Sequence record: NC_048178.1
Strand: one strand, 5' to 3'
DNA length: 41,912 nucleotides
Source: Escherichia phage Sortsne
The notes beneath the pieces were generated by a model. That model was not told the DNA's origin. It did not search any database and was given only the letters and a program-made list of their open reading frames with translations. Positions 4,442 through 7,869 of this stretch are shown here, piece by piece (within the stretch, counting starts at the first letter, position 1; every line of letters begins with the position of its first letter). The position numbers were made by a program, and so were the translations under genes.

Positions 4442-4494
4442 GATTCTACGTGCTACCCTTTAGCGGTTATTTAATTGTTAAAAGGGATCAGGCA

Positions 4495-4851
4495 ATGTCC
4501 GAACATACGACGCTCTGGCAATTGTTCCAGTTGTACCGGGTGGAGTTGGGTTATTCATTCATCGCGGCGTCTGTCGCGGTATTCCGTCACTGGCAATTAC
4601 GCCACCCATTCCGCGATATCGTAAGCGGCGGGGCCATCTGCGCGGCGGTGGCGTTCGGGATGAATAACATCCTGTCATTCTTTGGGGTCGATCATGGTAC
4701 GTGGGGTTATCTGGCGTCCGTGTTCCTGGGTTACGTGGGCGTGGAGACGGCGCTCGACTGGGCCAGCGAAAAGATCCCTTTCCTGAAAAAAATCCGCGCC
4801 ACCCCGGCGCATACTTCACCAGCGGAGGATCAGACCGATGGCAAAATTTAA
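4495..4851 (+). CDS. putative holin
   Basis: 118-aa protein with hydrophobic segments and charged C-terminus, immediately upstream of and overlapping the endolysin gene; position in lysis cassette. Confidence 0.5.
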   Translation: MSEHTTLWQLFQLYRVELGYSFIAASVAVFRHWQLRHPFRDIVSGGAICAAVAFGMNNILSFFGVDHGTWGYLASVFLGYVGVETALDWASEKIPFLKKIRATPAHTSPAEDQTDGKI

Positions 4852-5311
4852 GCTAAACGAACAGCGCCGCGCCTTTCTGGACGCGATCGCCTACTGCGAG
4901 GGGACCGACAACGGACGCCAGCAAACGCGAAACCACGGTTACGACGTGGTGGTGGGCGGCTCCCTGTTCTCCGACTATTCGAAGCATCCCGATCGCCTGG
5001 TGCGCCTGCGTCCGGGCCTCTCCTCCACGGCTGCTGGCCGCTACCAGTTGTTAAGCCGTTATTACGACGTGTACAAAAAACAGCTTGGCCTCCCGGACTT
5101 CGGGCCGGACAGCCAGGACCAGATCGCGCTCCAGCAAATCAGCGAGCGTAAAGCGCTGGAGGATATCGACGCGGGCCGGATCGAGTCTGCCGTGGCGAAG
5201 TGTAACAAGACGTGGGCCAGCCTGCCCGGCTCCCCTTACGGTCAGCATACCTACAGCATGGCCGTATTTCTGGAGCAATTCCGCAAGGCGGGCGGGAAGG
5301 TGGCCGCATGA
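4838..5311 (+). CDS. endolysin, lambda R-type lytic transglycosylase
   Basis: 157 aa; strong resemblance to lambda R as recalled (FLDAIAYCEGTDNGRQQTRNHGYDVVVGG...AGRYQLLSRYYD...WASLPG). Confidence 0.9.
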   Translation: MAKFKLNEQRRAFLDAIAYCEGTDNGRQQTRNHGYDVVVGGSLFSDYSKHPDRLVRLRPGLSSTAAGRYQLLSRYYDVYKKQLGLPDFGPDSQDQIALQQISERKALEDIDAGRIESAVAKCNKTWASLPGSPYGQHTYSMAVFLEQFRKAGGKVAA

Positions 5312-5829
5312 TCGCCGCCCTCCGGCTGTTCCTCTCGACTCACTGGCGCTTAGTGCTGCTGGCCGTTGTCGTGCTGCTGGCGCTGGGGGGATCTTTCTGG
5401 GCGGGCCACGAGTGGAGCGATCGCGCGTGGTCCAAACGCTGGGCGCAACGGGACGCGAACGACTCCTCCCAGGAAGCGAACGCACAAGCCGCCGCCCGTA
5501 TCATTGAACAGGGGCGAAACATCGCCCGCGAGGAGTCCGTAAAATATGCGAACGAACAGGCCGCAAAAGCTCGCGCCGCTGCTGCTGCTTCTGGTGCTGC
5601 CCTTGATCGGTTGCTCGAACGAGCCAGCAAGGAAGCCGCCCGACGCGAAGCCGCTGATCAGACCGCTGCCCTCGGAAGGGCGTCAGGGGAACAGACCGCC
5701 CGAATGTATTCCGACTTGCTCCGACGGACTGGAGAAGCTGCTCGACGGTATGCTGATATAGCGGAGGGGGCGATCACCGCTGGGGAGGTATGCGAAAGGA
5801 ATTACGACGCCGTGGAGCGTCAGCAATGA
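5308..5829 (+). CDS. i-spanin (Rz-like)
   Basis: N-terminal TM anchor then Ala/Arg/Glu-rich coiled-coil-like periplasmic region; directly after endolysin; contains embedded lipoprotein ORF. Confidence 0.7.
   Translation: MIAALRLFLSTHWRLVLLAVVVLLALGGSFWAGHEWSDRAWSKRWAQRDANDSSQEANAQAAARIIEQGRNIAREESVKYANEQAAKARAAAAASGAALDRLLERASKEAARREAADQTAALGRASGEQTARMYSDLLRRTGEAARRYADIAEGAITAGEVCERNYDAVERQQ
5546..5761 (+). CDS. o-spanin (Rz1-like), embedded in Rz in alternate frame
   Basis: 71-aa ORF wholly inside Rz; signal peptide with lipobox LIGC; proline-rich mature part. Confidence 0.65.
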   Translation: MRTNRPQKLAPLLLLLVLPLIGCSNEPARKPPDAKPLIRPLPSEGRQGNRPPECIPTCSDGLEKLLDGMLI

Positions 5830-5858
5830 GAAAGGGGCCTTGCGGCCCCTTTTTTTAT
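5829..5858. terminator. bidirectional intrinsic terminator between lysis cassette and Ig-like gene
   Basis: AAAGGGGCC-TTGC-GGCCCCTTT stem-loop followed by T7, A-rich on the other side; convergent gene ends. Confidence 0.8.
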
Positions 5859-6625
5859 GCTGCCGGATTAACCGTAACAGTACAGTGAATGGATTCGACC
5901 GTTTTCGGGGGGTTGGTGTTGCTGCTGGTGGCTACGCACCAGTATTCCCCGGCATCACCAGCGACCGGGGACGCTTTGGTGTAGGTCGCGGAGGTCGCCC
6001 CGGAGATCGGCGCGCCGTCCTTGTACCACTGGTAAGAGTACGGAGCGAGGCCCGTCTGAGGGTTCGCGGCCACTACCAGGGAGGCGGAGGTCCCGACGGT
6101 CCACGTCGCGCTCGCGGACAGGTTGGTGGACAGCGAGATCGCGACCTTCGTCCTCACGCGCTGAGAGTCCAGCGTCTGCCCGATCGAGTCGGTGATGGTC
6201 ACGAAGTAGTCCGCGTTATGGGTCGCTGCGGTGTAGTTCGAGATCGTCAGCGTGTCAGTCGTTGCGCCGCTGTAGCCGTTGGCGTTGGTGACGTTGCTCG
6301 TCTGCCCGCCGGAGATTTTCTTCCACTGGTAGGAGTAAGGAGGAACGCCATCAGCGGCCACCACTTTAAAGTCCTTACTGGTGCTAACCGGGACGTAAGT
6401 CGCGCCAGCGTCGCCAGCGGCCACGCCGGGGAGATCGGTCGTGAACTTGAGCGGCTTCGCCAGGTTCGGGTCGTACTCCATGTAAAACATACCAGTGGGA
6501 TCAAGCCCGGTCGGCTCGTCAGCCAGCCAGATCACGTCCTGCTGAGGGACTTCCGACGGGTCGGAGATCCGGGTGACTTTCCAGCCCAGGAGATCCGGGC
6601 GGTAGTAGCGATGCCAATAACTCAT
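5855..6625 (-). CDS. Ig-like domain protein (two tandem Ig-like repeats)
   Basis: Start refined to ATG at 6625 (GAGGA RBS); repeated PPYSYQWKK / APYSYQWYKDG motifs typical of bacterial Ig-like domains. Confidence 0.55.
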   Translation of the reverse strand: MSYWHRYYRPDLLGWKVTRISDPSEVPQQDVIWLADEPTGLDPTGMFYMEYDPNLAKPLKFTTDLPGVAAGDAGATYVPVSTSKDFKVVAADGVPPYSYQWKKISGGQTSNVTNANGYSGATTDTLTISNYTAATHNADYFVTITDSIGQTLDSQRVRTKVAISLSTNLSASATWTVGTSASLVVAANPQTGLAPYSYQWYKDGAPISGATSATYTKASPVAGDAGEYWCVATSSNTNPPKTVESIHCTVTVNPAA

Positions 6626-6699
6626 AATTTTGTCCTCATGGTGCGCCGTGTTATAGTTCCCCGGCATTGTAGATCATCTTTGAGCCGTAAACGAAAGGA

Positions 6700-6726
6700 G
6701 CCGCATTTTAAGCGGCCCTTTTTTTT
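6700..6726 (+). terminator. plus-strand-oriented terminator-like hairpin with T8
   Basis: GCCGC-ATTTTAA-GCGGC then CCTTTTTTTT; lies between two minus-strand genes. Confidence 0.35.
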
Positions 6727-6827
6727 CATAGTAGGGTAGTAACCCCGAAGCCAATTAAACCCCATACGGCGGCACTGGCTGCGATTACGCCCCAAATTAC
6801 ATAGCGGTGTCCGCGTAAGTCTTTCAT
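6726..6827 (-). CDS. small single-TM peptide (33 aa)
   Basis: Below track cutoff; ATG overlaps upstream stop (TGATG), GAGGGG RBS; translates MKDLRGHRYVIWGVIAASAAVWGLIGFGVTTLL. Confidence 0.3.
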   Translation of the reverse strand: MKDLRGHRYVIWGVIAASAAVWGLIGFGVTTLL

Positions 6828-7216
6828 CAGAATTTCCCCTCTTTCTTGAATTTTGCGATCCGCCCACGGAGAGCGGCGACGGTTTTCCCCAGCCAGTTAG
6901 CGACGTGCTTATGGGTCAGCCCGTCCGGCACTATGACGCCATGAGGTACGACGGCCACCAGTTCGTCCTCGTCCTGCTCCGTCAGTAACCCCTCATACCA
7001 GCGGGCCAGCTTGCGGTCCTCCTCCGTGGTCCACAGGGTGTACGTTTTACTATACGCCAGCGAGACGCCCAGGTGGTGGGCGCGGACCTGCATCTGGCGG
7101 AAGTTGCGCCCGATCTTTTTGGCGAGGTCCTTCGGCGGCATGGTCCCGGCGAGGCGCTCCAGTTCGGCGTCCTGCTCGTCTGTCCATCCGATAATCTTTG
7201 CGGTGACTTGGCTCAT
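6827..7216 (-). CDS. putative DNA-binding protein with two W-T-x-E-E-D repeats (GcrA/SANT-like)
   Basis: 129 aa; IGWTDEQDAELERL and LWTTEEDRKLARW repeats; assignment from motif recollection only. Confidence 0.4.
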   Translation of the reverse strand: MSQVTAKIIGWTDEQDAELERLAGTMPPKDLAKKIGRNFRQMQVRAHHLGVSLAYSKTYTLWTTEEDRKLARWYEGLLTEQDEDELVAVVPHGVIVPDGLTHKHVANWLGKTVAALRGRIAKFKKEGKF

Positions 7217-7476
7217 TTACTCCCCTTAAGGTGTCTTTTGTTTTTGGTGGTGGCGATCATTTCTTTGAGCGATGGACCGCCGTCGCTCCCTGGTACTACC
7301 CGGACCAGGTGCGGGTCCGGCTGGTGGAGGAAGATCTCACCCTCCGGGGTGGTGATCGATATGTCGGCGATCGCGTCCTTCCCGAATACCTGGGACACTT
7401 TGGCGATCATCGTGTCCAGGTTGGCGGCTTGCGCCGCCTCCCATACTTCGCGCCGGGTCCCCTGTTTACGCGCCAT
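7213..7476 (-). CDS. hypothetical protein
   Basis: 87-aa ORF, start/stop overlaps with neighbours in a coupled minus-strand operon. Confidence 0.4.
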   Translation of the reverse strand: MARKQGTRREVWEAAQAANLDTMIAKVSQVFGKDAIADISITTPEGEIFLHQPDPHLVRVVPGSDGGPSLKEMIATTKNKRHLKGSK

Positions 7477-7756
7477 ATGCTTTCCGAAGGGCGTCGTTAG
7501 CGTGGGCCATTGTCTCGCGGATCTCGCGCTTGGTGGCCTTCACCGCTTCCGGGCCAGCGGCCCACATACGGAGGCGGTTCTGGAGGCACTGCGCGTTAAA
7601 GGCCAGTGTCTGGGCCTGCGCCAGCATCAGCCAGCTTACGACCTTCGCGCGGTTCGGACGGGAGAAGATGGTCCCCATCTGATCGCCCCAGTATTTCGCG
7701 CGGAGGTCTGCCAGTGTTTCGCCGTTCTTGTTGGTGCGGATAGTTGCTGTATTCAT
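7466..7756 (-). CDS. hypothetical protein
   Basis: Start set at ATG 7756 (MNTATIRTNKNG...) with GAGGAGAC leader; first gene after promoter at 7790-7818. Confidence 0.4.
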   Translation of the reverse strand: MNTATIRTNKNGETLADLRAKYWGDQMGTIFSRPNRAKVVSWLMLAQAQTLAFNAQCLQNRLRMWAAGPEAVKATKREIRETMAHANDALRKAYGA

Positions 7757-7789
7757 CTTTCTGTCTCCTCGTGTTGGTGTGATAAAGAA

Positions 7790-7818
7790 TATAACAAAGG
7801 ATAAGTTTACCCGCAAGA
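7790..7818 (-). promoter_or_regulatory. sigma70-like promoter TTGCGG-N17-TATATT, flanked by ATCACGAAA and TTATCACA motifs
   Basis: Minus-strand reading; immediately downstream of an intrinsic terminator. Confidence 0.45.
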
Positions 7819-7837
7819 GGTTTTTTAATTATTTCGT

Positions 7838-7864
7838 GATAAAAGAGAAAAGGCCCCGGAGGGC
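7838..7864 (-). terminator. intrinsic terminator within early minus operon
   Basis: GGCCCTCCGGGGCC hairpin followed by TTTTCTCTTTT on minus strand; promoter 7790-7818 follows. Confidence 0.5.
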
Positions 7865-7869
7865 CTCGA

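Follow-up and report, generated by a model that had tools for sequence, protein, structure and literature searches.

T5 pb10 is a dispensable decoration protein located at the centres of capsid hexamers, and T4 Hoc has reportedly been proposed to adhere weakly to glycans or mucus (Barr et al. 2013; Fraser et al. 2006). The Sf14 protein gp20 was identified in virions by mass spectrometry and sits as a monomer at hexamer centres via an N-terminal capsid-binding domain; its relatives carry two or three Ig domains, and T4 is the exception in the placement of the capsid-binding domain (PMC11821841). The Schitoviridae podophage Moo19 encodes a 273-aa protein, gp28, that combines an N-terminal region located at the quasi-sixfold axes with Ig-like domains (PMC11654681).

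Here, we analyze a window of 41,912 nucleotides from Escherichia phage Sortsne (NC_048178.1), the whole stretch to which all coordinates below refer, in which a gene for an Ig-like protein lies next to a short open reading frame (ORF) for a hydrophobic 33-aa peptide. On balance, we consider it probable that the two are separate genetic units, one encoding an Ig-like decoration protein and the other a small membrane peptide. Small single-pass membrane peptides such as Caulobacter SidA, E. coli AcrZ/MgtS and the type I toxin TisB consist of a single transmembrane helix in a chain of around 30 residues; they work either by oligomerising or by attaching to larger proteins of the membrane.

Architecture and relatives of the Ig-like protein

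The longest ORF at the Ig-like locus (5855–6667, minus strand) spans 270 aa and contains the motifs GVPPYSYQWKK and LAPYSYQWYKDG. We rejected its first ATG, at 6667, as the start of the gene because it has no Shine-Dalgarno sequence, lies within a conserved TACAAT box, and is in a different frame from the gene in phages sortkaff and IME279. Translation probably begins at the ATG at 6625, giving a gene of 256 codons plus stop (5855–6625, minus strand) that is preceded by a Shine-Dalgarno GAGGA (6633–6637, minus strand) with a spacer of 7 nt. The equivalent ATG is the start used in most gene calls. A 299-aa ORF on the plus strand (5840–6739), antisense to the gene, was set aside as an artefact of high GC content.

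The protein consists of a small, beta-rich and lineage-specific N-terminal domain with a linker (residues 1–70; 6416–6625, minus strand), followed by two tandem Ig-like domains (5858–6415, minus strand) that cover approximately residues 72–162, with W101 in PPYSYQW, and 163–254, with W200 in APYSYQW. The original prediction of two Ig-like repeats was borne out: Pfam Ig_3 matches in two stretches (1.2e-08), and an AlphaFold2 model (pLDDT 94.4) reveals two beta-sandwich domains whose structural matches are Ig-domain proteins. The N-terminal domain of ~65 aa is likewise confidently folded (pLDDT ~91 at residues 1–50), and searches of the PDB and BFVD returned no structural relatives of it outside its own family; it has no similarity to known capsid-binding domains. 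Direct inspection of the N-terminal sequence (MSYWHRYYRPDLLGWK) detected no hydrophobic signal or transmembrane segment. All three domains have pN/pS ratios of 0.14–0.31, a pattern of substitutions indicating that the gene is under purifying selection.

Homology and architecture both support the earlier suggestion that the Ig-like protein is a decoration protein. Its PHROG match is phrog_2973, 'Hoc-like head decoration' (4.2e-52, residues 8–270 in the 270-aa numbering), and a profile of the family searched against the PDB retrieved 9c2d_S (1.4e-40), T5 pb10 (8zvi_a and 5lxk_A, ~5e-21), 9d7z_J, 9e99_J, and Hoc (3shs, 9.4e-07). We take chain S of 9C2D, the Sf14 virion model, to be gp20; the length of 9d7z_J, 273 aa, equals that reported for Moo19 gp28. 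The protein most likely decorates the virion surface, as Hoc and pb10 do, without being essential, and its N-terminal domain is presumed to be the virion-anchoring module. In the mechanism we propose, this domain would attach the protein to the particle, most likely at the capsid hexamer centre by analogy with T5 pb10 and Sf14 gp20, and the two Ig-like domains would point outward as a short flexible arm making weak contacts with carbohydrate-rich surfaces. As it has no signal peptide, the protein would meet the capsid in the cytoplasm. We infer this virion location and binding site by homology and analogy, and a search of the literature found no virion proteomics or structure for Sortsnevirus or Murrayvirus. 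Counting against decoration, the gene's neighbours are early genes, and the head genes are distant.

The Ig module itself is widely shared. At least four types of N-terminal domain are fused to it, distributed according to phage lineage, and the number of Ig domains varies between two and three among homologues. The module also occurs in tail-tube proteins, including Sf11 gp24, and, in RB16/RB43-type phages, in proteins that carry a Wac/fibritin whisker annotation. At one locus (L012), which we take to be N4-like from its DNA polymerase A and rIIB genes and from N-terminal matches to ~76-kb Pectobacterium and Kosakonia phages, the homologue shares a strand with the lysis genes and follows them; at another (L025) it lies directly 3' of the tailspike gene, again on the same strand.

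This last arrangement, together with the occurrence of the module in annotated whiskers and a tail tube, would fit an accessory of the neck or tail, for example a whisker on the collar or a decoration of the tail, with the N-terminal domain docking on the portal, the adaptor or the tailspike. A collar is visible on particles of Kc237 and Kc166B (PMC8402661), and relatives are annotated, in conflict with one another, as 'neck whiskers protein', 'tail protein' and 'major tail subunit'. However, these names were transferred rather than obtained by experiment, the best-scoring characterised relatives with an N-terminal anchor followed by Ig domains are capsid decorations, and the best PHROG family is a head decoration. 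We consider a neck or tail location unlikely and retain capsid decoration as the preferred reading.

Transcriptional context of the Ig-like gene

Consistent with the original description, the Ig-like gene adjoins the lysis-cassette terminator. Its stop codon (5855–5857) falls within the T-run of a bidirectional terminator hairpin, GGGGCC-TTGC-GGCCCC followed by T7 (5830–5857, stem-loop 5834–5849, both strands, −19.5 and −17.4 kcal/mol), which is common to this gene and the convergent lysis cassette, where the Rz stop is at 5829. The homologue in Kc166B has the same terminator element downstream.

A second hairpin, GGGCCGC-TTAAAAT-GCGGCTC, resembles a bidirectional intrinsic terminator (6690–6726, stem-loop 6698–6718, both strands, −15.9 and −16.1 kcal/mol, z ~−3.2) and lies upstream of the gene, within the 58–100 nt that separate the peptide stop from the Ig-like start. 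The stem-loop is followed by CTTTCGTTT on the minus strand and by T8 (6719–6726) on the plus strand. Its stem is conserved in group A, the Sortsnevirus/Murrayvirus-type loci, and in group B, with variation in the loop only; an Rfam search gave sub-threshold matches only, on the terminator hairpin.

Closer to the gene, a conserved box, GATGATCTACAATGCC (6663–6678, minus strand), contains the −10-like hexamer TACAAT (6666–6671) and is a candidate promoter for the Ig-like gene. The TAnnAT pattern is kept in register in three lineages, as TACAAT, TATCAT and AATAAT. We recognised no −35 element for this box, the sigma-70 consensus scan did not call it, and no second copy occurs anywhere in the genome; it is therefore not a shared late promoter.

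With a terminator on each side as insulation, the Ig-like gene probably forms its own transcription unit, and it would be transcribed either from the TACAAT box or via read-through of the imperfect upstream terminator; the timing of its expression we can only infer. The earlier proposal that the peptide and the Ig-like gene are coupled in one early operon did not survive this comparison, as a conserved terminator stands between them and the Ig-like gene has a −10-like box of its own. It is a less likely possibility that the face-to-face promoter-like sites at 6630–6671, in combination with the bidirectional terminator, yield a plus-strand RNA of ~60 nt that has a part in controlling the decoration gene.

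The hairpin at either end of the gene and its private −10-like box are also features that favour a moron, the second role originally offered for the protein, meaning cargo with its own promoter and terminator that is horizontally mobile and benefits phage or host in a way unrelated to the virion. The distribution of similarity points in the same direction: the gene of Kc166B, a phage of a different genus, is the most similar over the whole gene and both flanking elements (73% nt), while congeners match only the 5' part. Against cargo of this type, all relatives examined carry the gene, and at the same locus, rather than a sporadic few, it is under the purifying selection described above, and the phages of this group are described as lytic podophages. 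Moreover, the protein has neither signal peptide nor transmembrane segment and therefore would be unable to reach the cell surface before lysis. A moron thus appears very unlikely, and we keep to a decoration protein encoded in a unit of its own.

The 33-residue peptide and its operon

The peptide gene (6726–6827, minus strand) encodes MKDLRGHRYVIWGVIAASAAVWGLIGFGVTTLL. Its start codon overlaps the stop codon (6827–6829) of the gene upstream in the sequence TGATG, and AGAGGGG lies 8–9 nt before the start. The upstream gene (6827–7216, minus strand) encodes a 129-aa protein with two W-T-x-E-(E/Q)-D Myb/SANT-like helix-turn-helix repeats that matches phrog_323, 'transcriptional regulator' (1.2e-16), and, weakly, Pfam Myb_DNA-bind_6; no relative was found in the PDB. 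Homologues of the 129-aa gene precede the Ig-like gene in all lineages. Here it is the third member, and the peptide gene the last, of a four-gene unit extending from ~7756 to 6726. We propose that the peptide is made through translational coupling to this helix-turn-helix-like gene. The coupling originally claimed for the peptide thus holds with its upstream neighbour, through the overlapping start and stop codons, and not with the Ig-like gene.

A 33-codon ORF alone is no more than chance would provide, because the genome has 60% GC and its spurious ORFs of 25 aa or longer number in the dozens. Conservation is more informative. Outside the window, 15 group-A loci were examined, and in every one the ORF has 33 codons with neither indel nor internal stop. 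A comparison of ten genomes, which contain eight distinct sequences, gives a pN/pS of 0.2–0.4 at a pS of 0.44–0.64, and 22 of the 42 variable columns in the alignment are at codon position 3. The start/stop overlap is always kept, in one of two configurations (TGATG or ATGA). Constant length, low pN/pS, third-position changes and the preserved overlap therefore identify a real gene, and on these comparisons we conclude that the ORF is a genuine gene for a membrane-type peptide.

The original note had called the gene unannotated, which is not true of the family as a whole. It is listed as hypothetical in sortkaff, sortsyn, sortregn, Lumpael, ST231 and KMB41, so that six of nine distinct relatives' records call it, as does one metagenomic locus, and IME_EC2, IME279, Kc237 and most metagenomic calls lack the annotation. 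That so short an ORF escapes most gene callers could be taken to mean that it is untranslated and that what is conserved is an element in the RNA or DNA, belonging for instance to the terminator context or to the operon's 3' end; in addition, the upstream 'Shine-Dalgarno' doubles as code for the conserved C-terminal KFKKEG of the 129-aa protein. The third-position bias, a low pN/pS while pS reaches 0.64, the intact frame and the overlap in two arrangements all argue for translation, as does a hydrophobic helix held through conservative changes (G/A, V/L, F/Y), and we regard an untranslated element as most improbable.

The peptide itself is, as described at the outset, a hydrophobic peptide with one transmembrane helix. 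Its N-terminus, MKDLRGHR, is net positive; residues 9–33 make up a hydrophobic helix with many small residues (AASAA, GxxG) and a best 19-residue Kyte-Doolittle window of 1.88; and the C-terminus ends in GVTTLL, without a charged tail. Residues are invariant at 19 of 33 positions, among them W12, S18, A19, A20, W22 and G26. The predicted topology is N-in, and we suggest that the product is a single-pass inner-membrane peptide that most likely acts via transmembrane helix-helix packing, either with itself or with a host membrane protein.

An exhaustive protein search against 1.84 billion representatives yielded two matches: P0090, a true relative, and a repetitive 1026-aa protein that we regarded as spurious. 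A tblastn search against phages detected the peptide in Sortsnevirus and Murrayvirus only, Pfam, PHROGs, NCBIfam and PADLOC gave no match, and nothing relevant was found in the literature on small phage membrane peptides. The peptide is absent from sister lineages that retain the rest of the locus and is therefore dispensable for the basic life cycle.

Two specific assignments were rejected. As a holin or antiholin, the peptide has no Pfam or PHROG match, lies on the opposite strand ~0.9 kb from the end of the lysis cassette, and has an uncharged tail; the phage's own holin is the Phage_holin_3_1 protein encoded at 4450–4851. As a type I toxin, it has no family match and no evident overlapping antisense RNA; the opposite strand has a single promoter-like site (6630–6657), and RNA from it would end at ~6724, just short of the peptide ORF.

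A membrane-active effector, which could act in superinfection exclusion (the role raised originally, which is speculative), in inhibition of a host membrane complex or in modulation of lysis timing, is a tentative reading to which we give somewhat less than an even chance. It fits the single helix with its positive N-terminus and conserved small-residue packing motifs, the purifying selection on the peptide, and its co-translation with genes under a sigma-70-like promoter. It is weakened by the lack of similarity to holin, antiholin, exclusion or toxin families (no annotated protein proved similar in sequence; the known superinfection-exclusion proteins include T4 Imm/Sp, P22 SieA/SieB and HK97 gp15), by the position on the strand opposite the lysis cassette without a charged C-terminal tail, and by the absence from sister lineages. 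More doubtful still is the narrower idea that the peptide is the first of a new family, restricted to this phage lineage, of small membrane effectors that pack against a host inner-membrane protein. In that case, an ancestor of Sortsnevirus and Murrayvirus would have acquired the peptide gene at a position between the terminator and the helix-turn-helix gene, and the peptide's targets might include secondary infection, membrane-bound defence or cell division.

Comparison with described decoration proteins and membrane peptides

The 33-aa peptide resembles SidA, AcrZ/MgtS and TisB in form only, with no sequence similarity to them; it illustrates how inconsistently conserved small membrane genes are annotated. 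The Ig-like protein adds a case, from little-studied podophages, of a design that joins a private anchor domain to an exchangeable Ig arm. The fold of the anchor has no solved relative, which makes the domain a sensible choice for structural studies or for phage display based on these phages.

Sf14 gp20 shares with the Ig-like protein an N-terminal anchor followed by tandem Ig domains, the variation between two and three domains, and homology of the Ig domains themselves. Unlike the unrelated, beta-rich N-terminal domain here, however, its anchor is a helical bundle of ~118 aa, and Sf14 is a T=9 myovirus, whereas the present phage is a podovirus of ~42 kb in which the virion location of the protein is putative. 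T5 pb10 likewise combines an N-terminal capsid-binding domain with a homologous C-terminal Ig-like domain, but it has a single Ig domain and another type of N-terminal domain, and the alignment is limited to pb10 residues 73–160. In T4 Hoc (3SHS), after which the PHROG family is named, Ig-like domains also project from the capsid; its similarity to the Ig-like protein is weak, and its capsid-binding domain is C-terminal, in contrast to the N-terminal position of the non-Ig domain here. Moo19 gp28 is a podophage protein of similar size in which an N-terminal region is again combined with Ig-like domains. Homologues in phages of ~76 kb also lie beside lysis genes, although they have a different type of N-terminal domain (MSKMMIGNG...) and are encoded on the late/lysis strand. 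The Ig-like protein is of a known kind, probably an ordinary decoration protein of the Hoc/pb10 type encoded by a separate gene, and neither it nor the 33-aa peptide challenges current understanding.

The 33-codon ORF and the unit it closes

The window (41,912 bp, G+C 60.0%) has the length and G+C content published for Escherichia phage Sortsne (MK651787), the type species of Sortsnevirus (PMC7552041). Its closest records in the phage collection searched, at 79–81% nucleotide identity, are Kc237, IME279 and sortkaff (Sortsnevirus) and IME_EC2, Lumpael, sortsyn, sortregn, ST231 and KMB41 (Murrayvirus). Both ORFs of the original prediction were found where it had placed them, a 270-aa Ig-like ORF at 5855–6667 (−) and a 33-aa ORF at 6726–6827 (−) with the product MKDLRGHRYVIWGVIAASAAVWGLIGFGVTTLL.

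Since chance alone yields many ORFs of similar length in this genome, the presence of a 33-codon ORF alone means little. Comparative evidence strongly supports it as a real gene: it occurs in 15 of the 15 Sortsnevirus/Murrayvirus-type (group-A) loci examined besides the window, always with 33 codons and no indels. Among eight distinct nucleotide sequences from ten genomes, the window's copy compared with the others gave a pS of 0.44–0.64 and a pN of 0.13–0.18 (pN/pS 0.2–0.4); third codon positions account for 22 of the 42 variable columns, and 19 of 33 residues are invariant. The start codon overlaps the upstream stop in every case, as TGATG in the window, Kc237 and three metagenomic loci and as ATGA in sortkaff/IME279 and the Murrayviruses. 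The description of the peptide as unannotated holds for IME_EC2, IME279, Kc237 and most metagenomic gene calls, where it was missed, but not for six relatives in which it is annotated as a hypothetical protein.

The proposed translational coupling of the peptide to the Ig gene did not stand. The peptide is instead coupled to the 129-aa helix-turn-helix-like gene directly upstream (6827–7216), and a terminator hairpin (6698–6718) lies after its stop codon, the order there being A8, the hairpin GGGCCGC-TTAAAAT-GCGGCTC and CTTTCGTTT. In a scan, this hairpin was called as a terminator in either orientation. Its folding energy is about −16 kcal/mol (z about −3.2), and its stem does not differ among the group-A loci or between them and group B (L021–L023, a sister lineage without the peptide gene), variation being confined to the loop. 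In the stretch 7785–7867 (−), the scan also found a terminator-like hairpin (7850–7867), after which we read, by eye only, a promoter-like TTGCGG-17 nt-TATATT with a TG extension, then a Shine-Dalgarno sequence and an ATG at ~7756. These features subdivide the "early operon", so that the peptide closes a four-gene sub-unit bracketed by terminators: a ~96-aa gene (the 116-aa ORF 7466–7816 shortened to the ATG near 7756), an 87-aa gene with a DUF7334 match just below the Pfam cut-off, the 129-aa gene and the peptide gene. The order of terminator then promoter recurs before the Ig gene. In sortregn, the gap equivalent to 7785–7867 is annotated "repeat_region".

The best 19-residue Kyte-Doolittle window of the peptide scores 1.88, and its charged residues are only N-terminal (K2, D3, R5 and R8, plus H7), so an N-in topology with no extramembrane C-terminal part is expected. 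The invariant small residues (A16, S18, A19, A20 and G26), together with two tryptophans that are also invariant, suggest packing of helix against helix. Matches by tblastn are confined to Sortsnevirus and Murrayvirus, and Pfam, PHROGs, NCBIfam and PADLOC gave no matches. Of 1.84 billion cluster representatives searched exhaustively with HMMER, only two matched: P0090 (33 aa, 81% identity), a true relative, and a repetitive 1026-aa protein, regarded as spurious. L021–L023, Kc166B/L019 and the metagenomic locus L024 keep the helix-turn-helix gene, hairpin and Ig gene but not the peptide, and in such peptide-less sister lineages the hairpin comes almost directly after the helix-turn-helix gene stop. 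Absence of the peptide where its neighbors are kept indicates a lineage-specific addition, outside the core life cycle. The peptide would be made along with early or middle genes, and we tentatively favor a peptide that modulates a host inner-membrane protein or one that self-associates in the membrane; exclusion, division inhibition and lysis timing may be its roles, and a holin/antiholin or type I toxin is unlikely. It is an uncharacterized orphan of a sort common in phage genomes.

Start codon, leader and flanks of the Ig gene

ATG 6667 was rejected as the Ig start: it has no Shine-Dalgarno sequence, it is part of TACAATG, and a one-base indel in sortkaff/IME279 puts its equivalent out of frame. 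GAGGA precedes ATG 6625 with 7-nt spacing in nearly all relatives, and most gene calls of homologues begin at the equivalent ATG; we therefore take the Ig protein as 256 aa (5855–6625).

TACAAT lies within a 16-nt block, GATGATCTACAATGCC, twenty-odd bases downstream of the terminator hairpin 6698–6718 on the minus strand; this block is identical in all group-A loci and has no other copies in the genome. With counterparts in register in group B (TATCAT/TATTAT) and Kc166B (AATAAT), TACAAT looks like a candidate −10 element; no acceptable −35 was found for it, and a consensus promoter scan did not call the box. Transcription of the Ig gene would begin from this box or come from read-through at the terminator hairpin upstream (6698–6718), in which the minus-strand U-run is interrupted.

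Opposite the Ig gene, at window 6630–6724 (+), is a sigma-70-like site (TTGTCC-16 nt-TATAGT, TG extension, 9/12 matches) facing the terminator's plus form (GCCGC...GCGGC + T8) ~45 nt downstream, and the two together could yield an RNA of ~60 nt. All group-A relatives keep its −10 as TATAGT or TATACT, even Lumpael with its diverged surrounding leader; conservation of its −35 is confounded, since the same bases on the other strand form the Shine-Dalgarno sequence of the Ig gene. The Ig leader of the peptide-less L021, L022 and L023 has a conserved, perfect palindrome of 10 bp, GATTGCAATC, ~30–40 nt upstream of the Ig ATG, which could be a protein-binding site.

At the other end, the Ig ORF and the lysis cassette are convergent and have in common a hairpin with A- and T-runs either side (5834–5849), bearing out the predicted position beside the lysis-cassette terminator. 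The cassette consists of a holin (Phage_holin_3_1, 4450–4851), an endolysin (4838–5311) and a DUF2514 Rz-like spanin (5212–5829, +) that ends at 5829; within the last, a 71-aa lipoprotein ORF with a lipobox-like LPLIGCS (5546–5761, +) is the usual embedded o-spanin. Its counterpart in L011, the locus of a relative, has a Pfam RzoQ match. Lumpael and sortregn (L005 and L008, 2856–3068) and the metagenomic relatives L024 (2242–2460) and L025 (2252–2470) carry an extra ~70–72-aa gene between Ig gene and lysis cassette, which the window lacks. A small gene 5’ of the holin matches Pfam ParE_like in L011 (5529–5750) and L024 (3426–3644) and bears the annotation "putative toxin antitoxin system protein" in KMB41 (800–1036).

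Fold and family of the Ig protein

The two predicted Ig-like repeats are present as GVPPYSYQWKK and LAPYSYQWYKDG, and Pfam Ig_3 matches two stretches (1.2e-08). A confident AlphaFold2 model (26 homologues, mean pLDDT 94.4, pTM 0.80) begins with a small N-terminal domain rich in beta structure (strands in residues 2–63), followed by Ig-type sandwiches at ~72–162 and 163–254. Foldseek matches to it are Ig proteins of two to four domains, and in BFVD the N-terminal domain has as its top hit the Sortsne 256-aa "Immunoglobulin domain-containing protein". We found no signal peptide in the protein. Purifying selection acts over the full length of its gene, with pN/pS against two relatives of 0.14 and 0.31 and similar values across all three domains.

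A profile of the Ig protein's own family searched against PDB sequences matched a four-Ig "Immunoglobulin-like domain protein" (9ncf_S, 7.9e-52), a 372-aa "Tail protein" that we take to be Sf14 gp20 (9c2d_S, 1.4e-40), T5 pb10 (8zvi_a and 5lxk_A, about 5e-21), Sf11 gp24 (9occ_A, 6.1e-11), a "32 kDa protein" (9e99_J, 9.1e-10), a 273-aa protein of the length reported for Moo19 gp28 (9d7z_J, 3.5e-08) and T4 Hoc (3shs_A, 9.4e-07). This Ig-arm homology to proven decoration proteins, the N-anchor-plus-Ig plan and a match of nearly the whole protein to the phrog_2973 "Hoc-like head decoration" profile (4.2e-52) agree with the original reading as an Ig-like decoration protein, from which we infer a virion site.

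The Ig module is joined to at least four unrelated N-terminal domains: that of the window's protein in 41–42-kb podophages, a second in ~76-kb phages (homologues P0042 and P0044), a third in P0037 and a siphophage tail-tube-like fourth in P0071. The ~76-kb phages look N4-like: they have genes for DNA polymerase A and rIIB, and their N-domain matches ~76-kb Pectobacterium and Kosakonia phages. In nucleotide sequence the Ig gene of the window is a mosaic, as Kc166B, of another genus (L006 3525–4301), matches at 73% over the whole gene (window 5855–6625) and the downstream terminator, while Kc237, IME279 and sortkaff, which have a third Ig domain, match in the N-domain-coding part only. The nearest whole-genome relatives match the Ig region in that part only or in the terminator only. 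In L025 the Ig homologue lies after a P22-type tailspike gene, and in L012 (a ~76-kb phage) two Ig genes come after the lysis genes, in both cases on the same strand; such contexts point to late expression.

Comparison with known Ig-type virion proteins

Domain structure, Ig-arm homology, selection and insulation of the gene by hairpins are established for the Ig protein. It belongs to a well-known kind, already named "Hoc-like head decoration" in NCBI and PHROG-based annotations of relatives, and only its unmatched anchor fold and its place in a unit of its own, next to the lysis cassette and convergent with it, are unusual. It would join the virion in the cytoplasm by way of its N-domain, with hexamer centers the most likely site, and its Ig arm may give weak adhesion to polysaccharide-rich surfaces, as was reportedly proposed for Hoc by Fraser et al. 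in 2006 and Barr et al. in 2013. A literature search found no experimental work on any Sortsnevirus or Murrayvirus member bearing on virion site, adhesion or transcription.

Sf11 gp24 belongs to the tail tube (PMC12724387), and the Ig module thus decorates tails too; for the window's protein, a position at the neck instead of the hexamer centers seems to us unlikely. Hexamer centers, our preferred site, have precedents on capsids. In Moo19, a Schitoviridae podophage, gp28 is a decoration of the Ig type located at the quasi-sixfold axes (PMC11654681), and Sf14 gp20, detected in virions by mass spectrometry, sits as a monomer at the center of particular hexamers via its N-terminal domain; the capsid-binding domain is N-terminal in all the proteins compared there except T4 Hoc (PMC11821841). 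Sf14 gp20 has three Ig-like domains and its close relatives two (PMC11821841), so that it and the window's Ig protein share the same plan, with the same two-versus-three Ig variation among both sets of relatives.
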